Source of the DNA: an uncultured Deinococcales bacterium
GTDB taxonomy: Bacteria > Deinococcota > Deinococci > Deinococcales > JAAFIG01
Direction of reading: 5' to 3'
DNA length: 27,146 nt
NCBI GenBank assembly: GCA_964247135.1
Contig: CAXTTL010000037.1
Span: 1-27,146 of the forward strand
Under the pieces are notes generated by a model. That model saw nothing but the letters and a program-made list of their open reading frames with translations, ran no database searches and was not told where the DNA came from. The stretch's first letter is position 1. Each line of letters opens with the position of its first letter. Below are positions 1-15,546 of this stretch, piece after piece. A program made the translations under genes and the position numbers.

Positions 1-50
1 GCTGTGGGCGCTTGATCTGGATCGTAGCGGTCTAAACTTGGAGAAGCCAT
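1..50 (-). CDS. 5' start of a further gene of the respiratory operon, truncated by the window edge (MASPSLDRYDPDQAPT...)
   Basis: ATG at 50-48 directly follows the TAA (53-51) of the upstream ORF. RBS-like AAAGGGGG lies just upstream and the frame is open to the edge. Confidence 0.6.
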   Translation of the reverse strand, partial: MASPSLDRYDPDQAPT

Positions 51-368
51 TTACGCCCCCTTTCTGCTGCCCGGACGGGCAATGGTGCTGGCTCGAGTAT
101 CGGACACGAGCGCGGCAGCCAAAGCGGTCAACAGCACGGTGATGCCCATGTAGGCAAAGCCACGGTTCATGGGCATGGTTGGGTCACTCGAGCGCAAAGA
201 AGCAGGCAAGAGGTTGGCGGCGATGTCCTCGATGCTGCGCAAAAGCGCGACCCCAGGAATTGGGGCGTCAGGGTTGGCGTGGGCAAACGCGCCCAAGGTC
301 AGAACGATGAACACCATTCCGAGTCCGACCAGTGCGAGTGCGATGAATCCTTTGATGGCTTGGTTCAC
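51..368 (-). CDS. Small membrane protein (105 aa, about 2 TM helices), probable accessory subunit of the respiratory complex
   Basis: Hydrophobic segments at the N- and C-termini. The GTG start overlaps the upstream TGA (GTGA, 365-368), indicating translational coupling. Confidence 0.7.
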   Translation of the reverse strand: MNQAIKGFIALALVGLGMVFIVLTLGAFAHANPDAPIPGVALLRSIEDIAANLLPASLRSSDPTMPMNRGFAYMGITVLLTALAAALVSDTRASTIARPGSRKGA

Positions 369-673
369 TTGCTTGTCTCCTTTGGCGCTTCTGCTTTTGG
401 TGTTGGTAAAACCGCATCTTTGTCATAACCAAGCAAGCGTTCAAACAGGTGGTTCTTGACTTTCACATTGCCGTTCTTGCGTTCCGTGCCGTACATGATA
501 AAGCCCATGACAGACAGTAAAAACAGCAAAATAATCAGGTAAAACATGATTGAGAATAAACCTGCGGTGGTCGGTAACTTGAAAAATGCCATTAACGCCG
601 CATAACCCCTCGAGAACACCGAGATCGCAGCAAAAAACGTGATACCCGTGAACAACCACATGCTGCCTTTCAT
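365..673 (-). CDS. Small membrane protein (102 aa, 2 TM helices), probable accessory subunit
   Basis: RBS GAGGAG precedes the ATG. Two hydrophobic helices and a charged tail. Lies 26 nt downstream of cytochrome b. Confidence 0.75.
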   Translation of the reverse strand: MKGSMWLFTGITFFAAISVFSRGYAALMAFFKLPTTAGLFSIMFYLIILLFLLSVMGFIMYGTERKNGNVKVKNHLFERLLGYDKDAVLPTPKAEAPKETSK

Positions 674-699
674 TGCGTTCTCCTCATCATCCCTCGAGA

Positions 700-2007
700 T
701 TAGGCTTTATCGGCGGCGATTGCGGCGGTTTGGGCTTTGGCAGCCTCGAGCGCTTTTTGTTCACGACGGTTTCTGGCGCGTTGCACCAAATGCCAGATCG
801 CACCGCCGCCAAGCATGATCATGCTGACCAAGTACACATACGGCGGGTCGCGGTGAATGTCGGCGATGGAGAGGATGATCAAAATGCTGAAGCCCAACCA
901 GGCGACCAGCCCGTAAATGCCGACCAGCGTCCAGAATGGGCGCTTCCAGGGGTTGCGCTCTGGGCTGTAATCCAAAAAGACCACAATGAACGCGATCAGT
1001 GGAATCAGCACGGTTTGCAAGGTGGCGCTGGCTGGCTTCCAGAGTTTCATCATTTGGTACAAGCCCAAGAAGTACCAGTCGGAAAGGATTGGGTTTGGCG
1101 TGACGCTGTAATTGGCGGGCGAACCAGTCTCGACTGGCACAAAAATCGAGATGGCGACCAGAATAATCAAGAACGCCACCACCGAATACCAGGGCAGGTT
1201 GATGCGTGGCACGCGACCCGCACCGCCGACGCCCTTGTCGCCTTTACCTTTGCGGGCAAAATAAGCCTCGACCAAAATAATGGTCAAAATGCTGAGCATA
1301 AAGTGGGCGCTGTAAAAACGCGTTAAGGTTGCAGGACCAATCGAAAGTCCTGAAAGCATGTAATTTGCCATGATGTGACCAATTTGGGCAACGCCCAAGG
1401 TGGCTTTCAGAATTTGTGGAACTATCGGCAAGGCTGCAATGGTCGGAATGTCCTGGAAGTTATCGACAAAAGTTGGGAAGGTCGCAAAGACCTTGGTTGC
1501 CCAGAGCGCACGTTGATTCCAGATCAGCAAGTAACCCGTCAGACCCGAGAACATCGACAGGATCAAGCCAATCACGGTCAAGATGTAGGAAAGTTGATTG
1601 TAAGATTTGAACTCGCCGCGAAAGTACATGCGGTAAATGCGCAGGGTCAACGCCACAATCAAGGCATCCGCGCCGTACTTGTGCAATTGACGCGTCAGGT
1701 AAATGACCCAGCCCGATTGTCCCTCGAGAATGTTTTTGACCGAGAGCCATGACTGGTAAATGGGTCCAGTCGCGTCAGGAACGTAATAGAACATCAAAAC
1801 GGTGCCTGTGACAATAGTGATGTACCAGAACATCAATGCCATACCACCCAGCATGAACCACGGGTCGGTTTTGACTTTCTCCCTCGAGTTCTCGTCGAAC
1901 AGGTCTAGGTTTTTGGCGCTTTTGGTCCACCAGATTGCAATTTTTTGTCCGACGCTTGGACCGGCTTTTTTGGTTGCTGCCGCGCTTGGAATTGTTGGTG
2001 CTGCCAT
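700..2007 (-). CDS. qcrB: Cytochrome b of a Rieske/cyt b complex (unsplit b6+subunit IV, about 8 TM), atypical in lacking the heme bH ligands
   Basis: Motifs LGG...TG..LMFYYVP, RQLHKYGA, TGYLLIWNQ, TLTRFYSAH, PANYSVTPNPILSDWYF (PEWY equivalent) and RNPWKRP. Start placed at ATG 2007 after AAAGGGGG rather than at TTG 2046. Confidence 0.9.
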   Translation of the reverse strand: MAAPTIPSAAATKKAGPSVGQKIAIWWTKSAKNLDLFDENSREKVKTDPWFMLGGMALMFWYITIVTGTVLMFYYVPDATGPIYQSWLSVKNILEGQSGWVIYLTRQLHKYGADALIVALTLRIYRMYFRGEFKSYNQLSYILTVIGLILSMFSGLTGYLLIWNQRALWATKVFATFPTFVDNFQDIPTIAALPIVPQILKATLGVAQIGHIMANYMLSGLSIGPATLTRFYSAHFMLSILTIILVEAYFARKGKGDKGVGGAGRVPRINLPWYSVVAFLIILVAISIFVPVETGSPANYSVTPNPILSDWYFLGLYQMMKLWKPASATLQTVLIPLIAFIVVFLDYSPERNPWKRPFWTLVGIYGLVAWLGFSILIILSIADIHRDPPYVYLVSMIMLGGGAIWHLVQRARNRREQKALEAAKAQTAAIAADKA

Positions 2008-2054
2008 TGGCGATCCCCCTTTAAAATGAGTGTCTTGATTTGTCAATCTCGAGT

Positions 2055-2720
2055 TTAACCGTAACCTTTAATCACCACATTGCCACTCTCAAGCACAAAT
2101 CGAAATGGGAACGGGGTGCGCGGTGCTGGACCAGAAACCACATGACCCACGCGCATCACGCCAGCCACATCTTGGACTTCGACTGGATTGTACACGCTCA
2201 GGTGGCAAGGGCAACTGAACAGTGGGTGTCCTTTTGGACCCGTTTCGCCGCAGTAATTGAAACCGCTACAAACCTCGTCGCCAGTGTGGTACTGAAAAAT
2301 ACAGCCCAAATGGGCGCAGATTCTCGAGACGACCACCATCGAGTATTTTTCGCCTTTGTGATCGGCTTCGCCGTAACCTTCGCGCAAATCGCCGCCGATG
2401 TTGCCAATTTTGGTTGGGTCAAGCACCGGGACTTTGGGAACGCGCAAAATATAACCGGGAATATCGGTTTGTTGCGTGCCTTTGCTCGAGTATTCTGGGG
2501 TGATTTGGGTGAACACAAATTCTTTGACGTCCCACTCTTTGGGAAATTCGTCGAGCGAGGCGGCGATCAAGTCTTTGTTTTGTGGAATTTCGGCGGTGGG
2601 AATCGAGAGTGGTTTGAGGTCGGGCTTTAAAAAGCTTAACAGTGCCGAACCCACACCTCCCAAAACCGCCAGAATTGGAATGGCGGTGATGCCTTTGAGG
2701 ATGGTGCGACGGTCAATCAT
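2055..2720 (-). CDS. qcrA: Rieske [2Fe-2S] protein of the bc-type complex
   Basis: Tat-like DRRTILKG plus TM anchor. Box1 CAHLGC, box2 CPCHLSVY, C-terminal GPAPR. ATGA overlap with the upstream cytochrome c gene. Confidence 0.92.
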   Translation of the reverse strand: MIDRRTILKGITAIPILAVLGGVGSALLSFLKPDLKPLSIPTAEIPQNKDLIAASLDEFPKEWDVKEFVFTQITPEYSSKGTQQTDIPGYILRVPKVPVLDPTKIGNIGGDLREGYGEADHKGEKYSMVVVSRICAHLGCIFQYHTGDEVCSGFNYCGETGPKGHPLFSCPCHLSVYNPVEVQDVAGVMRVGHVVSGPAPRTPFPFRFVLESGNVVIKGYG

Positions 2721-3727
2721 GGCTTGACTCCTTCTGGTGGCTTGACACTGGCAATTGGTGGATCAACACTGTAACTAAACGAACGGATATACGCCACCAC
2801 ATGGTTGATTTCGGCATCGCTGAGTCTGTCCACCCATTGCGGCATTGCCGAACCGTAAATACCATTTTTTAAAGCCGTGCGCAGTTTGTTTTCCGAACGG
2901 TTGAACAAACGCCGTGGCTCGTGAAAATTGGCTGGCGGTGGTTGCAGCATCGCGCCCGAGTGACCCTTGCCCCAACCGTCTGCGCCGTGGCACATGTTGC
3001 AGTTACCAAAAATGCCTCGACCATCTTTTTGCTTGGATTTGTTGGCAATGCTGGTCGGATCAAGCTTGAGCGGCACAGTCTCTTTGAGGTTTGGCTCGAG
3101 CTTGACGTAAAGCGCCATCGCCAAACTCCACAGGGCTTCTTTGTCTAAAGTCACCGGTTGTTGAACTGGCACTGGTTTGCGCTCAACCTTAGCCGTCGCA
3201 GGGTCTTTGACTTCGACAAAGGCGTTCATGGTGACATCCACGGGACTTGGCTCGCTTTTTAAACCGTCTTGCAGTTTCAAAAAGGCTTGGAATGGGCTGT
3301 CGTCCAAGGTTGGCAGCATTGCGGGCGTAATCTTGTCTTTTAAAACATCGAACAACAAATTGCCCAGAACCAAATTTGGATTGCCCACAGGCAGAAGCTT
3401 GACATCTTCGCCCTCGATCCACTTGCCCGCATAAGAGCCGTTCTCGGCAAGCTCGCGTCCGTTGAGGTAATCGGTTTTTTGACCGTCTTCATTGGTACGC
3501 TCGAGCGGATTGACTTTGTACTGCTCTGGGTATTTGGGGTAATTCCATTTGTAAGCCACCTCGTCGGCGGTTACATTTGCCGCGCCAGGCAGTTTAATAT
3601 CACCCTTCAGCGAGACATCGCCGCCAATTTTGCTCGAGTCGGCTTTGATGCTGCACGCCCCCAAAAACAGTGCCAGCGTGATTGAAGTGCTGATTGCAAA
3701 AAATGGCTTCATTAAAACCTGCTTCAT
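2717..3727 (-). CDS. Lipoprotein monoheme cytochrome c (long N-terminal region plus C-terminal class I c domain)
   Basis: Lipobox LFLGA-C. Heme site CNMCH with distal Met in GSAMPQW. ATG 3727 overlaps the upstream TAA (TAATG). Confidence 0.85.
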   Translation of the reverse strand: MKQVLMKPFFAISTSITLALFLGACSIKADSSKIGGDVSLKGDIKLPGAANVTADEVAYKWNYPKYPEQYKVNPLERTNEDGQKTDYLNGRELAENGSYAGKWIEGEDVKLLPVGNPNLVLGNLLFDVLKDKITPAMLPTLDDSPFQAFLKLQDGLKSEPSPVDVTMNAFVEVKDPATAKVERKPVPVQQPVTLDKEALWSLAMALYVKLEPNLKETVPLKLDPTSIANKSKQKDGRGIFGNCNMCHGADGWGKGHSGAMLQPPPANFHEPRRLFNRSENKLRTALKNGIYGSAMPQWVDRLSDAEINHVVAYIRSFSYSVDPPIASVKPPEGVKP

Positions 3728-3924
3728 TAAAACCCCTGTGCCGGAATCCAAGAAATTCCGAGGGCGATAAAAATAATAAACAAAAACACCGCGATAGCCG
3801 AGGCTGGAACGTTGCGTTCGCCCACCCGAATCCCAGCGATTTCGTGGGTGTGATCGCCGTGAATGTCCTGAAAATTGCTGGCGAGTTCAGTTTCGGTTTC
3901 GGTGCTGGGCGTTTCGAGACTCAT
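3727..3924 (-). CDS. 65-aa single-TM protein resembling the N-terminal anchor of CcoP/FixP
   Basis: RBS GGAGG precedes ATG 3924. HEIAGIRVGERNVP followed by a TM helix parallels the CcoP pattern H(E/V)xDGI.E.DNPLP followed by a TM helix. Confidence 0.6.
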   Translation of the reverse strand: MSLETPSTETETELASNFQDIHGDHTHEIAGIRVGERNVPASAIAVFLFIIFIALGISWIPAQGF

Positions 3925-3969
3925 TGGTTCCTCCGATGTGAGCGAGACGCTCGAGATCACTTTATTGGT

Positions 3970-4263
3970 TTAATTTGCTTCTGGCTCTGGGCGTTCGATG
4001 CTTGGGGCACGACCATAGAGAAAATCGTTGTCCGGTTCGATCAAATTAAATTTGACGCGTTCGGCGTTGTGAAATTGACCATCCAAATACGCCCAAAGCG
4101 CCGACAAGACCAGCAGTGAAAAAATCACACCCACCGCAATCAGAACCACCCAAGTGCCTTTGTAATCCAAACCGACCGCCGGCACGTGGTCTGCCAGGGC
4201 ACTCGAGCCGAGCAAAAACACCAGCAATACGATTGATTTTTGAAAACTCGAGCGGTTGATCAT
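3970..4263 (-). CDS. ccoS: CcoS/FixS-like cbb3 oxidase maturation protein with an extra N-terminal signal-like segment
   Basis: A TM helix followed by LWAYLDGQFHN..R...LI matches the CcoS pattern W..KSGQFDD. Starts 3 nt after the ccoO stop. Confidence 0.65.
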   Translation of the reverse strand: MINRSSFQKSIVLLVFLLGSSALADHVPAVGLDYKGTWVVLIAVGVIFSLLVLSALWAYLDGQFHNAERVKFNLIEPDNDFLYGRAPSIERPEPEAN

Positions 4264-4266
4264 GAT

Positions 4267-5184
4267 TTAGTGTCCTTTGGTGGCTTTCGGTGCTCCTGGA
4301 TACTCGCGCTCGACGTTGCCTGGTTGCAAGGTTTTGGCATCGTAATACTTTTCGCGTCCTGGTTTGGCGGTCAAATCTTGATCGGCAGCCAATGATTTGA
4401 GGTATTCGACCACGTACCAGATTTGCTCTTCGTTTAAAGTTTGATCCCAGCGCGGCATACGCGTGCCTGGAACACCTCGAGCGACCTTGTTAAACCAGTG
4501 TCCATCGGTGAAGTCTTTGTAGCGCGGCAAGTGGAAGTTGGCGGCTGGCTTGGGGTAGAACATTTTTGCCAACGGCACATCGGCACGACCCTCGTAACCG
4601 TGGCAGGGGGCGCAGTTTTGGTTGAAGATACCGCGTCCAGAGCCGGCGTTTGCCGCACTGAAAGGCGATTTGAGGTTGCGGTATTTTTCGGGCACATTCA
4701 CATCTTTGGTTTCCCAAGCCCTGGTGTTGCGCGTACCGAGCGACTGAATAAACGCCACCAAATACCGAATGTCGGTGTCGTTCAAGTAACTGTAGCTGGG
4801 CATGAACGAACCAGGCAGGTAGGAACGTGGCGATTTGAGGTGACCGATGTGCCACTCGTCGGGGTAAAGACCGCCCTCGTAAGTTAAATCTGGACCGTTG
4901 CGCAGCGTCCCCAGAAGGTTCACACGGTCATAGGCAAAGTCGCCAGCCTGCGAGGTTGGACCCGTGCCCTCGTCTTGGAAGCGCACAAATTGACTGTGGC
5001 AAACATAGCAGTTCTCGCGTTGGAAAATCGCGCGACCCTTTAATTCCATTGCCGTGTATGGACGCAAACCTGGGGTGGGTTCTGGGTTAAAACTTGCCGC
5101 CGGAACAATCACCACCAATGAGGTCACGCCGCAAACGAGCAGCAGGAAAGCCAGTCCAATAATAAAATTTCTTGCATTCAACAT
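4267..5184 (-). CDS. ccoO: cbb3-type oxidase subunit II fused to a second cytochrome c domain (diheme)
   Basis: The CcoO part has LRPYT..EL.GR.IF.RENCYVCHSQFVR, GTLRNGPDL and SFMPSY. The second domain has CAPCH and GTRMPRW. RBS AAAGGAGG. Confidence 0.9.
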   Translation of the reverse strand: MLNARNFIIGLAFLLLVCGVTSLVVIVPAASFNPEPTPGLRPYTAMELKGRAIFQRENCYVCHSQFVRFQDEGTGPTSQAGDFAYDRVNLLGTLRNGPDLTYEGGLYPDEWHIGHLKSPRSYLPGSFMPSYSYLNDTDIRYLVAFIQSLGTRNTRAWETKDVNVPEKYRNLKSPFSAANAGSGRGIFNQNCAPCHGYEGRADVPLAKMFYPKPAANFHLPRYKDFTDGHWFNKVARGVPGTRMPRWDQTLNEEQIWYVVEYLKSLAADQDLTAKPGREKYYDAKTLQPGNVEREYPGAPKATKGH

Positions 5185-5201
5185 CTTCTGACCTCCTTTG
5201 T

Positions 5202-6635
5202 TTAATCGTCTGCCGCAGCAGCAGTTAGGGCGGGGGCGACGCTCGAGCCTCGAGAGACTTCTTGGCGCCTGGCAGAACGCACGGTTTGCACGGCGTTATA
5301 GGCGAAAATATAAACGCCGAAAATCATCACCGTGGCAGCCATCCAACGCACCATGACAAACGGTTTTAAGAAGGGCACGGTTTGTTGGACATTGATGCCC
5401 ATGTTCCAACTGGCGGCTTGAATAAAGCCCATGGTGGTCCAGGTGATAAAGAACATGATAAAACCGACCGAGAAGGTCCAAAAGTGAACCACGACCAGTT
5501 TTTTGGAGTACCACTCGACTTTGTAAAGGCGCGGCACGGTGTAATAAATTGCCGAGAACAGCACCATGCTAAAACCGCCAAGCATTGCCAAGTGCGCGTG
5601 GGCACTGACGATGCCCGTGAAGTGCTGATACCAGTTGATGCTGCGAACAGCCTGCAAAGAACCCTGAAAGCTGGCAAGGGCGTACATGATCCAACCGAAG
5701 GTCATGAAACGAAGCGGTAAATTCCAAGCCAGGTTGTCCCAACGCCCTTGGGTGGACAAGAAGAAATTTGCGCTGGCAGAGTACACCGGAATGCTCATTA
5801 AAACGCTCGAGCCGATGGCGAAGGCTTTTAGCCATTCTGGGACGGGCGACTGAATAATATGGTGCGCCCCGATGCCGGTGTAAAAGGCAAAGTTGCCCCA
5901 GAAGCCGATGAGTGAAAGTTTGTGCGAAAAGATTGGGTTGCCAGGTTCGCCTTTTTTACCGACCGTTAATTTGGGCAGCAAAAAGTAAATGATGCCGATG
6001 CCCATGGTCGTGATCCAAAGCCCGAGCACGTCGTGGGCGTAAAACCAGTTGGCGATGGCGTCGTTTAAGCCGTCCAAGGGTACGAAGGTGCGGTTGCCGA
6101 CAATCCAAACCATGCTCATGCCGATAAACGAACCCATCCAGTACCAGACCGAAACATAAAGTTGCGGTTCGGTGCGGCGGGCGACGGTCATGAAAACATT
6201 GACGGCGCTTAAGACCAGCAAGATCAGCATGAACCAATCCATTGGCGGAATCAACTCTGCCCATTCACGACCCTCAGAAAAACCGTTTAAAAGCGTGAGC
6301 GGAATCAATGCGGCAAAAATATTCCAGAGCCAGCCCGTCATGGTGCCCAGACGTTCAGAATAGAGCGGGGCTTTCACCAGGCGCGGCAGCATGTAAAAGC
6401 AAGCGCCGATGCTCGCCATCGACACCCAAGACATGACCACCGTGTTGACGTGCGAGGGACGAATGCGGCTAAAAGACAACCACGGCACACCCTTGGTGAT
6501 GTCAGGAAACATAAACTGCGTTGCCATGAACACACCAAATGTCATGCCAATCACGCCCCAGACGATGGCAGAAGTCAACCACAACTTCGCGCTCGAATCG
6601 GGAGTGTCCGGAAAGAACCGATCTAATAACGTCAT
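5202..6635 (-). CDS. ccoN: C-family (cbb3-type) heme-copper oxidase subunit I
   Basis: RIRPSHVN (heme b His), GREWAE, LYVSVWY, WFYAHDVLG (CuB His), FYTGIGAHH (helix VII Tyr plus CuB His pair), FQGS, AHAH (b3/b ligands). About 12 TM helices. Confidence 0.93.
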   Translation of the reverse strand: MTLLDRFFPDTPDSSAKLWLTSAIVWGVIGMTFGVFMATQFMFPDITKGVPWLSFSRIRPSHVNTVVMSWVSMASIGACFYMLPRLVKAPLYSERLGTMTGWLWNIFAALIPLTLLNGFSEGREWAELIPPMDWFMLILLVLSAVNVFMTVARRTEPQLYVSVWYWMGSFIGMSMVWIVGNRTFVPLDGLNDAIANWFYAHDVLGLWITTMGIGIIYFLLPKLTVGKKGEPGNPIFSHKLSLIGFWGNFAFYTGIGAHHIIQSPVPEWLKAFAIGSSVLMSIPVYSASANFFLSTQGRWDNLAWNLPLRFMTFGWIMYALASFQGSLQAVRSINWYQHFTGIVSAHAHLAMLGGFSMVLFSAIYYTVPRLYKVEWYSKKLVVVHFWTFSVGFIMFFITWTTMGFIQAASWNMGINVQQTVPFLKPFVMVRWMAATVMIFGVYIFAYNAVQTVRSARRQEVSRGSSVAPALTAAAADD

Positions 6636-6907
6636 CCCATCACCCCAAACCTCTCAAGAATCACAAGCTGAACAACCTCGAGCGAAAACAATTGAAATTG
6701 AAACAAATCTGTCATGTCACGCTCCCTCAAAACCCCCCTGATAATTTCACTGGAACTTCACGACCTCGAGTTACACGAGATGCAAGATAGATTCCCCACA
6801 ATACCCAAATACATCCCGCGAATGCGACTGAGAATTGTCCCAAGCGAACTCGAGACATGGGGCAATTTTTACATATTTCAGGGCGAATCGCAAAACCCAG
6901 ACCAATT

Positions 6908-7921
6908 TTATTTTGAACCCAGCGTATCATTGCGCTTTAAGAACTTCTCGAACAAGCCAGGTTTTCGGGGTTTCAAGGCTTTGGGTTCCAAGCCCAGCGC
7001 TTCGCGCAGAGCTGGAATGATTTTGCGGGTTTGTTCCATGCCAACCTCGAACAGCTCGCGGCTAAGCTCAAAATCAAACACGCCCGAAGGCACCTCCTGA
7101 CCGACATGCAAGACCATGTCCGCCTGATTCATGTGATAACGCTCGAGGTGGTCGCGGCTGATGCTGGCAGCCCGCAAGATCACCTCGATGGCGGTTTTGG
7201 GGACAGTCGTGGGCGCATCGAAGCCAACATCGACCGCCAATACAAACGCGTCCGTCAGCAAGTCCCGCGCCACACTGACCGGAACGTTGTTGACCACGTG
7301 CCCATCTGCCAAATGACGACCATTTAACAAGACCGGCGGGAAAACACCAGGGATCGCGCAGGAGGCGATGGCAGACTCGAGCAACAAACCCGTCTTTAAA
7401 ACCACCTCTTCGCCGGCGATCAAATCGGTGGCGACAAACGCCAACGCCAGGTTTAAATCTTCAAAACGCACGCCGCCCACCAGCGGCTGCAAACTCTGAC
7501 GGAGCGGCTCGAGGCTGGCAATCCCAGGACCGGACACGCCAGATAAAATCACTTTTTGCCAACCCGAGAGCGTTTTTAAGGCGTCAATCAAATCAAAACC
7601 CTTGCTGGGCTTGTTCGACAAGACCTGACGCAAATGCGCGTAGCCGCTCGAGCCGATGGCTTCGATCAGGCGGTAAATCTCGGTTCTCGAGCGCGACTCA
7701 AAGGCATTGGTTTGCGTGCCTGGGGCTTCGTCCTCGCGTCTGAAACCTGCCGTCTCGAGCGCGAACAACATGCCAGCCAAAGCGCCCGAGCTGCTGCCCG
7801 CGATGGCGCCGACTTCGATATCGGCTTGTTGCAATGCCCGCAAGACCCCCAAATGCGCCGCGCCGCGCACACCGCCACCACCCAAAGCCAAAGCCAATTT
7901 GCGCCCACGTTGATCCTTCAT
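6908..7921 (-). CDS. Patatin-like phospholipase
   Basis: GGGGVRG oxyanion loop, GSSSG nucleophile elbow, ASCAIPGVFPP, and DGH in place of DGG. Leaderless start with TAGGGT at 7933-7928. Confidence 0.9.
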   Translation of the reverse strand: MKDQRGRKLALALGGGGVRGAAHLGVLRALQQADIEVGAIAGSSSGALAGMLFALETAGFRREDEAPGTQTNAFESRSRTEIYRLIEAIGSSGYAHLRQVLSNKPSKGFDLIDALKTLSGWQKVILSGVSGPGIASLEPLRQSLQPLVGGVRFEDLNLALAFVATDLIAGEEVVLKTGLLLESAIASCAIPGVFPPVLLNGRHLADGHVVNNVPVSVARDLLTDAFVLAVDVGFDAPTTVPKTAIEVILRAASISRDHLERYHMNQADMVLHVGQEVPSGVFDFELSRELFEVGMEQTRKIIPALREALGLEPKALKPRKPGLFEKFLKRNDTLGSK

Positions 7922-12762: not shown

Positions 12763-15546
12763 ATGGCAAATCTTTTTGAAATCATCTCGAGCTTGGTGGC
12801 AGGATTAATCCTGCTTGGGCTTCACATCAACCGTGAACGCTGGGGATTTTTGCCAATTCTGGGGTTCTTGATGTGCACCACCTTGGCGATTTTTGTTTTT
12901 GATTTCACACCATTTGCCTCGGCGTCCTCGAGTGCCTTGTACCTCACCCAATTTGGCTTGGCAGTGATCCTGATTTTTGATGGTTCCAAACGCTGGCGCT
13001 CGAGTTTGATCCTGATTCTGGGCGTTGCGATTCTTGCCAGCATTTTGTTAAACCTCTCGGGCGTTTGGAATTCCGAAGCCAGTCGGTACGCCATTGTCAA
13101 CACGTTGTCGTTGCTGGTTGCGGGCTTTTTGATGTGGATTTTGTTCTCGCAACTTCAAAGCACGGGATTGCTTCAAATGTATGCCATGTTTGCCGTTGCC
13201 GGAGCGAGCGATGTCGTCCTGAAAAAATTACTGATTCCAAACGGTTTTGATTTGCTCGAGACTCGCTTGCTGTTGATGGTCTTGATCGGACCCGCCTTTG
13301 CCTGGTATTTGGAACGCACCAATTTAGAACTTCAAACCAGCTCCAACACGGCGCTCAACAACGCCACCTACAAGGCACTGATGGGAACGCTGGCGGTCAT
13401 TGCCCACGGTAAACCGAGAGCCTCGAGCAAAGATGCCGTCACGACCTTTTTTGATACCGCCGAGGTGCTCGCCCGAGGCAGCGAAGACGACCTGTACCCA
13501 AAACTCTTGGACAGCGCCCTGTCCTTGATCCCGGGCGCTCAGGCGGGAAGTTTGCGCTTGCGAACGGGTGACACGTTTCGTTGGGTGGCACAACGTGGAC
13601 ACGACGACCTGATCCTCAACCTCGAGATCGACATGTCCCAGGCGCTCGAGTTTCATGGTGACCCCTTGGGTTGGTACCGTGGAACGCCTGTCATTCGGGT
13701 GCGACCCGCCTTTGACCCGCAGGTGAATGCCAAACTTCCAACCTCGCGCCAAAGCGTCAAAAGCGTGCTGGTGTTACCGATTTTGGTCGGGCATGAAATC
13801 GTTGCCGAAATCAGCCTCGACAGTTTCAAATCCGAAAAAGCCTTCTCGGACGAATCGGTGTCCGCCGCCCGACAATTTGCCCTGCAAGCCGCCGCATTGA
13901 TCGCCGCCAAGCGCGAACAATTCAACCTCGAGTCCAGGTTGCGCGAGTTTGAAGTGCTCGAAAGTGTCACCAGCGCCCTGCACAACGCCCACAGCTTGGA
14001 AGACATTTGCGAACGCGTGATGCTCGAGACGGTGCGTTTGATCGGCTCGCAACACGCCACAGTCTTGTTAATTTCAGACGATACCAGAAGTTTAAATGTT
14101 CAAAGCGCCTGGGGTTTGTTCAAATTTTTGCTTCATAAAGGCGTCCCTCGCGGCAATGGTTTGTCATGGTCTGCGATTGAAACCCGCCGCATGATTGAAA
14201 CTGTCGATACCCAACGCGACCCACGCAATTACGCCCCCCACGTCAGCACGCCGCTGCCGCCGCATTCTCAACTGACCACGCCACTTTTTGATTCCAACGG
14301 CACGGCTCTCGGCGTCCTGTTGTGCGCCAGAAATTTACCCGATCAATTCAGCGAACTCGACAAGCGCCTGGTCAATGTGATCGCCAAAGTCACCGCCAGC
14401 GCCCTCGAGCGGGTTCGGGTGACCGATGACTTGGAGCGCCGGGTCATGGAAAGCCAAACCCTGCTGGCACTCTCGCACCTGCTCGAGAGCACCGACCCGC
14501 AATTGGTGCACGTTGCCCTGAAACGCATCATGGAACTTGGCGGCGCAGATGTTGGCATTGTTGGGGTCATGCGCGACGGTGTGCTGCGCATGGAAACCCA
14601 CACGGGTAAAATCTCGGATGAGTTGATGGCAAGCCTGCAACAAGGCTCGAGCGCCGAAGAGGTTTCGTTTGTCAACCTCAAAGCCCAGCAAGGTTTGGAC
14701 ATTCGGCTCTCAGAGTTGCAACAATTTGGCGGTCTGAACAACGCCGGCTTAAAACGCGCCTTTATTTTCGGACTCGAGACCGAAGGTGCGCCCAGAATCA
14801 TTGGTTTGTTCCGCCATACTGACATGCCCTGGACGCCCAACGAACGCAACCTGATCGAATCGGGCACAAAGACTTTGGGGGCGTTGCTGAGCCGCCTCGA
14901 GCGCGTCGCCACCCTGGAGGCAGCCTACGAGGGCGCACTGCTCGCCGTCGGCAAAGCCCTGGAAGCCCGCGACCTCGAGACTTCAGACCACACCGAACGC
15001 GTGGCGCAACTCGCCGAACGCATGGCGAAAGCCTTACACCTGCCCGACAACGAAATCCGTGCGATTCGTTGGGGCGCGTACCTTCACGATGTCGGCAAGT
15101 TTTCGATCCCAGACACAATCTTGCACAAGCAAGGCGCACTGACCTTAGAGGAACGCAACTTCATTCAAACCCATCCTTTTGTCGGTTACAACCTGATTCG
15201 CACCATTCCATTCCTGCCCGAAAGTAGCCGCAGCATTGTCTTGCACCATCACGAACGCTGGGACGGACGCGGCTATCCGAACGGGCTGAAAACCGAAAGC
15301 ATTCCGCTCGCCGCGCGAATCTTTGCCGTTTGCGACGTATTTGACGCCCTCAGCCACAAAAGGATTTATAAAGAAGCCATGAGCCTGCAAGACACCATGC
15401 TCGAGTTACGCGCCAGCGCCGAAAATGGTCACTTGGAAGCCAGGTTGGTGCAGTTGCTTGAGGATTTGATTGTCTCTGACTTGCAATTGCGCGATTTTGT
15501 GATGTCCAACTCGAGGTTGAACACCAACGACTCGAGGTTGAATTAG
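12763..15546 (+). CDS. Membrane-anchored GAF-domain HD-GYP cyclic dinucleotide phosphodiesterase
   Basis: About 6 N-terminal TM helices, two clear GAF domains and a probable third. HD-GYP motifs EARD..T..HTERV, LHDVGK, HP, HHHERWDGRGYP, DVFDAL and RIYK. Confidence 0.88.
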   Translation: MANLFEIISSLVAGLILLGLHINRERWGFLPILGFLMCTTLAIFVFDFTPFASASSSALYLTQFGLAVILIFDGSKRWRSSLILILGVAILASILLNLSGVWNSEASRYAIVNTLSLLVAGFLMWILFSQLQSTGLLQMYAMFAVAGASDVVLKKLLIPNGFDLLETRLLLMVLIGPAFAWYLERTNLELQTSSNTALNNATYKALMGTLAVIAHGKPRASSKDAVTTFFDTAEVLARGSEDDLYPKLLDSALSLIPGAQAGSLRLRTGDTFRWVAQRGHDDLILNLEIDMSQALEFHGDPLGWYRGTPVIRVRPAFDPQVNAKLPTSRQSVKSVLVLPILVGHEIVAEISLDSFKSEKAFSDESVSAARQFALQAAALIAAKREQFNLESRLREFEVLESVTSALHNAHSLEDICERVMLETVRLIGSQHATVLLISDDTRSLNVQSAWGLFKFLLHKGVPRGNGLSWSAIETRRMIETVDTQRDPRNYAPHVSTPLPPHSQLTTPLFDSNGTALGVLLCARNLPDQFSELDKRLVNVIAKVTASALERVRVTDDLERRVMESQTLLALSHLLESTDPQLVHVALKRIMELGGADVGIVGVMRDGVLRMETHTGKISDELMASLQQGSSAEEVSFVNLKAQQGLDIRLSELQQFGGLNNAGLKRAFIFGLETEGAPRIIGLFRHTDMPWTPNERNLIESGTKTLGALLSRLERVATLEAAYEGALLAVGKALEARDLETSDHTERVAQLAERMAKALHLPDNEIRAIRWGAYLHDVGKFSIPDTILHKQGALTLEERNFIQTHPFVGYNLIRTIPFLPESSRSIVLHHHERWDGRGYPNGLKTESIPLAARIFAVCDVFDALSHKRIYKEAMSLQDTMLELRASAENGHLEARLVQLLEDLIVSDLQLRDFVMSNSRLNTNDSRLN

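Follow-up and report, generated by a model that had tools for sequence, protein, structure and literature searches.

This study concerns the first 6,635 nucleotides (nt) of contig CAXTTL010000037.1 (assembly GCA_964247135.1) from an uncultured Deinococcales bacterium. The whole stretch of 27,146 nt was analyzed and is called the window below. At positions 1-6635 on the minus strand, nine complete open reading frames (ORFs) follow one another head to tail, with the first codons of a tenth after them, and join a C-family (cbb3-like, low-oxygen) haem-copper oxidase with a Rieske/cytochrome b module. They are listed here from ccoN onward, after the intergenic region that precedes ccoN.

6636..6907, no strand: intergenic, probable promoter region; 272 nt upstream of ccoN, the sole long gap in the gene string
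5202..6635, minus: ccoN, C-family (cbb3-like) haem-copper O2 reductase subunit I, 477 amino acids (PF00115, E 3e-72)
4267..5184, minus: ccoO with a class I cytochrome c domain fused at its C-terminal end, 305 amino acids (FixO at residues 11-140, E 2.6e-36)
3970..4263, minus: probable CcoS/FixS-like small membrane protein, 97 amino acids (positional FixS matches in related loci)
3727..3960, minus: small protein with a single transmembrane segment, 77 amino acids from GTG 3960 or 65 from ATG 3924
2717..3751, minus: membrane-anchored monohaem class I cytochrome c with a lipobox-like LGAC, 344 amino acids from TTG 3751 or 336 from ATG 3727
2055..2720, minus: Rieske [2Fe-2S] protein, 221 amino acids, RR-containing N-terminus, CAHLGC...CPCH from residue 135
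700..2046, minus: cytochrome b of 448 amino acids in which a b6-like and a subunit-IV-like part are fused (PF00033, E 3.6e-23, and PF00032)
365..673, minus: small membrane protein, 102 amino acids, no Pfam or NCBIfam match of note
51..368, minus: small protein with two transmembrane segments, 105 amino acids, no family match
1..50, minus: start of a second cytochrome b (fused 2x[4Fe-4S] ferredoxin domain), first 16 codons; the remainder lies beyond the window

An initial annotation had described ten same-strand genes with gaps under 50 nt and four coupled junctions, and both descriptions were borne out. The intergenic distances from ccoN onward are 17, 3, 9, -25 (-1 with the ATG start of the cytochrome c gene), -4, 8, 26, -4, and 0 nt, and thus range from -25 to +26 nt at 1-6635. 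The four junctions are TAATG at 3729-3725, ATGA at 2720-2717, GTGA at 368-365, and a TAA directly followed by ATG at 53-48. On the other hand, the unit does not end with a tenth gene at position 1, as had been proposed. The window was compared with L001, a contig of a Deinococcales metagenome-assembled genome (MAG) with 86-87% nucleotide identity to the window. Positions 3-50 of the window (minus strand) translate to MASPSLDRYDPDQAPT, which is identical to the start of the 401-residue product of L001:16578-17783. In L001, this tenth gene encodes a second cytochrome b with Fer4 domains and is followed by an MvhD/FlpD-like gene (PF02662, E 2.8e-21) and by a gene for a 60-residue membrane protein. 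Thus, the operon runs past window position 1 and consists of 13 genes in about 8.5 kb.

Is this gene order common in other bacteria? One genome per species was scanned, 270 loci with a CcoN relative were obtained, and the best 80 were kept, of which 19 were too short for synteny scoring. Seventeen of the 80 loci are Deinococcales or Deinococcota MAGs with a CcoN identity of 81-97%. The others (CcoN identity 40-47%) are mostly Melainabacteria of the Obscuribacterales and Vampirovibrionales, including Vampirovibrio chlorellavorus (L065) and Obscuribacter phosphatis (L080), with a few Fimbriimonadaceae. It was found that ccoN, the ccoO-c fusion, the Rieske gene, and the cytochrome b gene follow each other in that order on one strand in 61/61 loci that extend 6.1 kb or more beyond the ccoN start, so the arrangement is far beyond chance. 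The second cytochrome b gene and the MvhD-like gene follow too in 57 of the 58 loci with at least 8.7 kb. The synteny check that had been suggested for ccoN with Rieske and cytochrome b genes thus came out in favor of the conserved order, and the description of one tightly packed gene string combining a C-family oxidase with a Rieske/cytochrome b module is supported by both the gaps and the synteny. Eight of the loci (L034, L042, L048, L049, L059, L061, L062, and L071) stem from records whose titles give Gammaproteobacteria, Chloroflexota, Oculatellaceae, Proteobacteria, Coleofasciculaceae, Planktothrix, or Anaerolineae. In the CcoN tree, they fall within the Melainabacterial clades (groundwater-type clade, Vampirovibrionales, Obscuribacterales) or the Fimbriimonadaceae clade. 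These loci may be mislabelled bins or may reflect recent transfer of the operon.

The Rieske-linked cytochrome b is not a standard dihaem protein. When it is aligned to the cytochrome b6 of 1vf5_A, H122 and H248 correspond to the haem bp/bL pair of helices B and D, while R136 and Y262 fall at the positions of the haem bn/bH histidines. In the window and 62 loci (counts are ORF-based and include L059, a row with stops), H122 and H248 are each present in 63/63 sequences. Position 136 is Arg in 62 of the 63 and Lys in one, and position 262 is Tyr in 62 and His only in L036. No histidine was found in the columns neighboring these two positions in the 63 rows. In an alignment of 42 rows (the window and 41 hand-chosen of 54 valid loci), there is no further invariant histidine, while E260 and S322-D323-W324-Y325, an SDWY motif at the place of the Qo motif, are invariant. 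The position of the haem ci cysteine of cytochrome b6 is a Met in the window protein. Since the Arg/Tyr replacement is found family-wide, it is a trait of the clade and not an error in a single sequence. Judged from the sequences, canonical bis-histidine binding of haem bH in this cytochrome b is impossible. A profile search of 1.84 billion representative proteins returned 6291 cytochrome b relatives. Among the best 150 of these, 26 have Arg or Lys at the helix-B site and 20 have SDWY, and the other full-length relatives have His at the helix-B site. The ligand patterns of the 26 are HRHY (9), HR-- (6), HRHH (5), HRHR (3), HKHY (1), HRHF (1), and HRHW (1). The Rieske-linked cytochrome b of Obscuribacterales has a C-terminal extension of about 150-200 residues with more predicted transmembrane segments (for example, L080 14319-16220, 633 amino acids), which is not present in Deinococcales (window 700-2046, 448 amino acids).

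The second cytochrome b has what the first one lacks. In L001, it matches PF00033 (E 7.3e-31) and carries Fer4 domains at residues 328-382. All four haem histidines (H104, H118, H209, and H223) are present in 59/59 orthologues, and eight conserved cysteines (C329, C332, C335, C339, C367, C370, C373, and C377) make up two CxxCxxCxxxC motifs. These 59-row counts are ORF-based and include rows with stops (L028, L058, L059, L065, L069, L074, and L075); the alignment comprises 36 hand-chosen of 39 valid loci, and L002 was left out of the set due to a cross-match to its own first cytochrome b. In the MvhD-like protein, four cysteines are invariant among 24 orthologues. The profiles of the two cytochrome b proteins align over 284 columns through helix F with a probability of 100% (E 5.8e-41). 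In the ef loop between helices E and F, the second protein has D(W/V)F(Y/F) where the first has SDWY. Homology with the b6f/bc1 topology places the Fer4 domain, which comes after helix F, on the cytoplasmic side. Cytochrome b, Fer4, and FlpD are fused in a single chain in 32 of 105 relatives of the second cytochrome b, and the cytochrome b is fused to a 2Fe-2S/FAD/NAD reductase in another 23/105. Judging by these fusions, the cytochrome b, its Fe-S domain, and MvhD function as a single module joining membrane haems with cytoplasmic redox chemistry. Another protein, P0219, was considered as a fusion of cytochrome b and FixO but was rejected, since its FixO match covers only 46 residues and what follows its cytochrome b part is a class I cytochrome c domain at the C-terminus.

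The oxidase genes encode a divergent C-family enzyme. Residues 22-463 of the window CcoN align to the solved cbb3 CcoN chains 9g6b_A (E 9.5e-64) and 3mk7_A, and H62, H201, Y252, H258, H259, H346, and H348 are invariant among 31 sequences and match the corresponding residues of 9g6b_A. I take these residues, from what is known of 3mk7, to be the ligands of haem b, haem b3, and CuB and the cross-link tyrosine of helix VII. CcoN scores 257.8 bits against TIGR00780 (equivalog cut-off, 583.15 bits) and CcoO scores 123.4 bits against TIGR00781 (cut-off, 200.65 bits). The Rieske protein and the cytochrome b also stay under their NCBIfam equivalog cut-offs. Thus, all the large subunits belong to a divergent branch of their families. 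Some CcoN variants of proteobacterial megaplasmids are 32-36% identical to the window CcoN, versus 26-28% for canonical ccoN/fixN products. One such variant C-family subunit I is encoded on a Ralstonia solanacearum plasmid (L082 8710-12985) beside CcoO-like, cytochrome c, and SCO genes, with no adjoining Rieske or cytochrome b genes. The ccoO product has CxxCH motifs at residues 59 and 191, and two CxxCH motifs are found in 71/71 orthologues. Its C-terminal extension holds a Cytochrom_C domain at residues 183-265 (E 1.6e-18). The TIGR00782 ccoP model matches only the last haem domain there (E 1.3e-9), and the fusion protein matches Rhizobium tropici CcoP at E 7e-7 in BLASTP.

No separate dihaem CcoP and no small CcoQ were recognized in the window by Pfam and NCBIfam scans, and no match to cytochrome c1, cytochrome f, or a dihaem QcrC was found among the window proteins by family scans, in agreement with the initial annotation, which had reported no c1, CcoP, or CcoQ. 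A lipoprotein-like cytochrome c stands at the place of a c1. Its Cytochrom_C domain covers residues 242-324 (E 3e-11), and the protein has one CxxCH in the window and in 9/9 Deinococcales orthologues, while two CxxCH motifs are found in 50/50 others. The N-terminal half of the Deinococcales protein aligns with the first cytochrome c domain of the dihaem forms, with the CxxCH segment deleted. The Rieske motif pair is present in 63/63 orthologues. Family matches of the Rieske protein are below threshold (TIGR01416, E 6.3e-7; PF00355, E 0.15), which is explained by an unusually long spacer of 25-33 residues between the two motifs.

Four small membrane proteins are encoded between these subunits, and they had been put forward as novel. 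This did not hold for the 97-residue protein. It is likely, on sequence grounds, to be a CcoS/FixS-like factor for cbb3 maturation, and the label ccoS that it had been given is plausible. The window protein itself matches FixS (PF03597) at E 0.04, while the proteins at the equivalent position match FixS at E 0.01 or below in 30/40 related loci; FixQ matches only 1 of the 40 (E 0.0035). The FixS-like proteins share a pattern of a transmembrane segment followed by WAxxxGxF..E..K (examples: window 3970-4263, L080 12390-12638, L065 12456-12623, and L022 12863-13042). Their N-termini read MCP(N/S)C in Melainabacteria and YCDC in Fimbriimonadaceae, and those of Deinococcales and L036 are signal-peptide-like and followed by ADHVP (ADRPP in L036). 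The N-terminal cysteine pair may bind a metal. The 77-residue protein has a counterpart in nearly all related loci (61 loci) with a conserved pattern, (R/E)(I/V)GE..P, a transmembrane segment, and SWIP..G(Y/F). It bears a weak resemblance to the N-terminus of CcoP. FixP_N gave weak matches to two of eight tested proteins at this position (E 0.0016 and 0.14), and an hhalign alignment to residues 17-45 of R. tropici CcoP is in register but without statistical support (probability 1.6%, E 0.032). The protein is possibly the counterpart of the N-terminal anchor of CcoP. The 102- and 105-residue proteins match no family. The former has sequence relatives in Deinococcales loci and L019, and small transmembrane ORFs are found at its position in L065, L022, L019, and L036; the latter has sequence relatives only in Deinococcales loci.

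The window is chromosomal DNA, with housekeeping flanks and three collinear related assemblies. The flanking genes include an allantoinase gene, hisF, hisIE, an aminotransferase gene, and cysPTWA, and the window is collinear with L001, L015, and L002 at 85-87% nucleotide identity over up to 16.6 kb. A gene for a patatin-like phospholipase lies at 6908-7921 on the same strand, 272 nt upstream of ccoN. Since it is kept at that place only in L001, L002, L004, and L015, it lies outside the conserved unit. Consensus scans of the 272-nt region upstream of ccoN found no sigma-70-like or FNR-like sites. In the window as a whole, terminator-like sites (17 versus 12.7 +/- 3.5 in shuffles) are no commoner than chance, promoter-like sites (6 versus 4.9 +/- 1.8) are near chance, and the FNR/CRP-like box has 14 matches where 12.2 +/- 3.6 are expected, none of them upstream of ccoN. 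No Rfam families and no tRNAs were found in the window. A 927-residue HD-GYP/HDIG response-regulator-like protein is encoded at 12763-15546 (plus strand), 6 kb upstream of ccoN. In 23 non-Deinococcales loci, most of them labelled Obscuribacterales or Melainabacteria, relatives of its HD-GYP part (26-33% identity) are encoded about 4-6 kb upstream of ccoN (for example, L080 5294-5986). This neighbor may be a conserved regulatory gene or a chance match of a common domain.

The initial annotation supposed that the operon was probably acquired laterally and proposed phylogenies of CcoN and cytochrome b. In the CcoN tree, Deinococcales form one clade (16 rows, support 100, stem 1.57). Together with Fimbriimonadaceae (3 rows) and Melainabacteria (60 rows), this clade makes up an unresolved trichotomy, and Deinococcales are not nested within Melainabacteria. 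This tree was computed with a quick method and rooted with the R. tropici CcoN and the Ralstonia variant. In the unrooted cytochrome b tree, Deinococcales again form one clade (12 rows, support 100, stem 1.74). Both trees thus give Deinococcales a deep clade of their own without Melainabacterial nesting, and the operon appears to have been inherited as a unit. A second line of evidence is the palindrome CTCGAG, which occurs 145 times in the window (1-27146; 5.3 per kb), versus 4.8 +/- 2.0 expected from shuffles; the runner-up 6-mer palindrome occurs 19 times. Its density is 2.3-6.1 per kb in all 17 Deinococcales loci, and the remaining 63 loci have a median of 0.08 per kb. The excess resembles that of the highly iterated palindrome HIP1 of cyanobacteria. 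Within the window, the density is 3.0 per kb in the operon and 6.1 per kb outside it. Within genes, the phase CTC-GAG is favored (50, 11, and 28 for the three phases), and no extended flanking consensus was found around the sites of the window. The GC content at third codon positions (GC3) is 0.56-0.72 for the operon genes, without the cytochrome c gene, and 0.61-0.74 for the flanks. Since the operon carries the CTCGAG signature of its host, it has probably resided for long in this Deinococcales lineage. Its spread over three phyla implies lateral transfer at some depth. The supposition of lateral acquisition fits the patchy distribution, but Deinococcales are not nested within Melainabacteria in the trees and the operon bears the host signature. 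From these sequence comparisons, a recent acquisition by Deinococcales is unlikely.

What would such an operon do? Its proteins may constitute a self-contained chain from quinol, probably menaquinol, to O2. Quinol would be oxidized at a Qo site with the SDWY motif, formed by the Rieske protein and the first cytochrome b. The Asp in this motif suggests menaquinol by the correlation of Kao and Hunte (PMC4122944, in the part of the text that was available). The first electron would pass from the Rieske protein to the anchored c haems (of the lipoprotein, the CcoO extension, and CcoO) and then via CcoN to O2. As the first cytochrome b has no bH ligands, a Q cycle inside that subunit should not be possible. 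The second electron would go to haem bL and then most likely to the dihaem second cytochrome b (haems bL' and bH'), encoded four genes downstream. The second cytochrome b could either reduce quinone on the n-side, which would be a Q cycle in trans, or exchange electrons with the cytoplasmic Fe-S/MvhD chain. Stable supercomplexes of complexes III and IV are established for bcc-aa3 of Actinobacteria and for bc1-cbb3 of Rhodobacter capsulatus and Pseudomonas aeruginosa. Among the structure matches of the cytochrome b and CcoN are 6xkw and 8smr, solved bc1-cbb3 supercomplexes. A bolder version, which is rather doubtful, is a rebuilt Q cycle within one III-IV particle, where a cytochrome b with only a Qo site and haem bL is paired with a dihaem cytochrome b. 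The low-potential electron from the Qo site would cross the membrane through the second cytochrome b to the 2x[4Fe-4S] domain and the [2Fe-2S] center of the MvhD-like protein, so that O2 reduction would drive the reduction of a low-potential cytoplasmic acceptor by bifurcation. Alternatively, the Fe-S chain would supply electrons to a quinone site on the n-side, in the role that an external donor has in the original Q-cycle scheme of Mitchell.

I give a probability of roughly 0.6 to the overall reading that this is a conserved 13-gene quinol-to-O2 operon with a one-haem cytochrome b, in which the second electron passes through the second cytochrome b, and which has resided for long in its host after an old transfer. 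Its most serious competitor, though a less likely one, is that the genes are merely transcribed together and encode separate machines, namely a cbb3-type oxidase, a Rieske/cytochrome b complex without a Q cycle, and an independent loop of the second cytochrome b, Fe-S domain, and MvhD. Both quinol electrons would then go sequentially to the Rieske protein and cytochrome c with haem bL as a transient store, and the second loop, resembling NarI, would link the quinone pool to a cytoplasmic redox partner. Several facts fit this competitor or weigh against the reading that I prefer. The path proposed for the second electron is wholly inferred. Both cytochrome b proteins keep a Qo-like motif in the ef loop, and the second one, with its own D(W/V)F(Y/F) motif and helices E and F, could be an independent quinol/quinone site. 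Fusions of cytochrome b, Fer4, and MvhD stand alone in the 32/105 relatives mentioned above, besides the 23/105 reductase fusions, and such fusions occur in clusters without a Rieske gene according to the available part of Kao and Hunte (PMC4122944). L051 has the oxidase and Rieske/cytochrome b genes but neither the second cytochrome b gene nor the MvhD-like gene downstream; in this Vampirovibrionales MAG (L051 15994-21317), opposite-strand genes come after two small ORFs, and it is the sole exception among the long loci. Moreover, the conservation rests on the best 80 of 270 CcoN-related loci, including the 19 short ones. G67, the glycine that makes room for haem bn, is invariant in the 42 aligned sequences, and its haem-accommodating role is described for other cytochrome b proteins (PMC5600118, available in part). 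Since G67, R136, E260, and Y262 are all kept, a non-canonically bound cofactor may occupy the old bH site. However, the module is kept in the same operon in all but one of the 58 long loci, the first cytochrome b has lost its bH ligands throughout the family in the company of an adjacent dihaem paralogue, and the modules have no soluble electron carrier encoded between them, since every c haem is on an anchored protein. These points speak against separate machines.

The historical part of the preferred reading, long residence after an old transfer, has its own difficulties. The very long outgroup branches and the quick method make the root of the CcoN tree unsafe. In every Deinococcales locus, CTCGAG is about half as dense in the operon as in the flanks, which could indicate a later arrival or simply coding constraints. 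Could Deinococcales have taken the operon recently from Melainabacteria? Among the best 80 of 270 loci, the closest CcoN sequences outside Deinococcales are those of Melainabacteria and Fimbriimonadaceae (40-47% identity), Deinococcales are listed without cbb3 in the part of review PMC9075580 that was available, and both the CTCGAG density and the GC3 of the operon are somewhat below those of the flanks. But every subunit is only 36-47% identical to any Melainabacterial copy, the Deinococcales clade is deep and lies outside Melainabacteria in the CcoN and cytochrome b trees, the operon is present in all 17 Deinococcales/Deinococcota loci with 65-97% internal identity, and its CTCGAG density is about 35 times that of non-Deinococcales loci (3.0 per kb versus a median of 0.08). 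A recent transfer from that source is highly improbable. Still harder to believe is that an ordinary bc1/b6f-type complex lies beside an ordinary cbb3 oxidase, or that Melainabacterial DNA entered through a binning or assembly artefact. Pfam does assign standard families to the subunits. Nevertheless, the cytochrome b lacks both bH histidines, and CcoN, CcoO, the Rieske protein, and the cytochrome b all fall under the NCBIfam cut-offs. As for an artefact, the operon has the host-specific CTCGAG excess, housekeeping genes flank it, contigs are collinear in several independent assemblies, and L017, one of the Deinococcales loci, derives from a chromosome record of 5.09 Mb. To the extent that sequence can decide, this last possibility is refuted.

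The operon places a C-family oxidase in Deinococcales, contradicting the list in the 2022 review, which in its available part names Deinococcales among the orders without cbb3 (PMC9075580). The remark in the initial annotation that a cbb3-type oxidase is unexpected in this group is consistent with that list. An operon that has so far figured in discussions of how aerobic respiration arose among cyanobacterial relatives is now seen in three phyla. The organisms with the operon, including the cultivable predator V. chlorellavorus, would oxidize quinol without a classical Q cycle or complete the cycle via the second cytochrome b, and a one-haem, Rieske-linked cytochrome b would be a testable exception to the textbook mechanism. 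The fusions of cytochrome b, Fe-S domain, and MvhD, whose role has been unassigned since 2014, gain a context beside a Qo site and an oxidase. If the genes encode only co-regulated separate complexes, the results would still usefully correct the annotation and add to the phyletic record.

A "complex III-IV" operon, or operon fusion, has been described in Melainabacteria (PMC6349859), and a further source (10.1101/531145) attributes it to Soo et al. 2017. In the literature search, the fusion was found described only in PMC6349859, its preprint (10.1101/328856), and 10.1101/531145, as far as the available parts of these sources go. The gene-for-gene order and the orthology with L065 and L080 identify the operon studied here with this known operon, and the kinship with the Melainabacterial fusion that had been suspected is thereby borne out. 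The arrangement thus matches a known operon, but its cytochrome b is not the standard dihaem protein. A cbb3/Rieske operon in Deinococcales was not found in the openly searchable literature. In the same literature, which leaves aside subscription papers and supplements, no description was found of the loss of the haem bH ligands, of SDWY, or of the constant partnership with a cytochrome b-Fe-S-MvhD module. The available parts of PMC6349859, 10.1101/531145, and PMC4040986 make no mention of missing haem ligands, a second cytochrome b, or an MvhD-like gene. With the fusion itself already known from Melainabacteria, what seems new from the sequences is the Deinococcales host, the loss of the bH ligands, SDWY, and the constant cytochrome b-Fe-S-MvhD partner, although priority is uncertain.

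The operon can be compared with several known systems. With the proteobacterial cbb3 oxidase CcoNOQP (3mk7 and fixNOQP of R. tropici, L081), it shares the haem and CuB histidines, the helix-VII tyrosine, a monohaem CcoO, and a CcoS-like factor. It differs in that the window CcoN is only 26-28% identical to canonical CcoN, that one cytochrome c domain is fused to CcoO instead of a separate dihaem CcoP and CcoQ, and that a quinol-oxidizing module is encoded in the same operon. The b6f, bc1, and actinobacterial bcc complexes share with it the Rieske motifs and a cytochrome b with b6-like and subunit-IV-like parts. In contrast to these, the window cytochrome b has neither the bH/bn histidine pair nor the haem ci cysteine (Met instead), c1, f, and dihaem QcrC are all absent from the Deinococcales form, and SDWY takes the place of PEWY or PDWY as the Qo motif. 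An Asp in the Qo motif, as in the window cytochrome b, is also that of menaquinol-using lineages (PMC4122944); the string SDWY does not occur in the available text of that paper. A stable III-IV supercomplex, as put forward in the initial annotation, may exist here too, with indirect support from the obligate linkage in one operon and the anchored c haems.

Two groups of cytochrome b proteins offer partial precedents. In the available part of Kao and Hunte 2014 (PMC4122944), a "PDWF-FeS" clade of Magnetospirillum magneticum AMB-1 as well as of Turneriella parva combines cytochrome b with 4Fe-4S and MvhD, without a Rieske partner and with an unassigned role. The second cytochrome b of the operon shares with this clade the four haem histidines, the D(W/V)F(Y/F) motif, the 2x[4Fe-4S] domain, and the adjoining MvhD-like protein, but MvhD is a separate gene here, and the operon also holds the Rieske gene, another cytochrome b gene, and the oxidase. 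The cyanobacterial cytochrome b "subfamily K" (Dibrova et al. 2017, PMC5600118, available in part) sets a precedent in that helix 2 has lost a histidine that ligates haem. Its members are short, carry Glu or Gln there, are without the accommodating glycine, and have no link with a Rieske protein or an oxidase, while the window cytochrome b has Arg, keeps the glycine, and is Rieske-linked.

O. phosphatis and V. chlorellavorus have the closest counterpart, a complex III-IV operon that agrees with the one studied here in gene content and in gene order on one strand, all the way from ccoN to the MvhD-like gene. Its large subunits are 36-47% identical to those of Deinococcales, and its cytochrome b has the same Arg/Tyr replacement and SDWY. 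Besides having a Deinococcota host, the operon studied here differs from it in a cytochrome c with one haem motif (9/9) instead of two (50/50), in a shorter cytochrome b (435-460 amino acids versus up to about 660), and in a FixS-like protein that begins with a signal-peptide-like sequence instead of an N-terminal CPxC.

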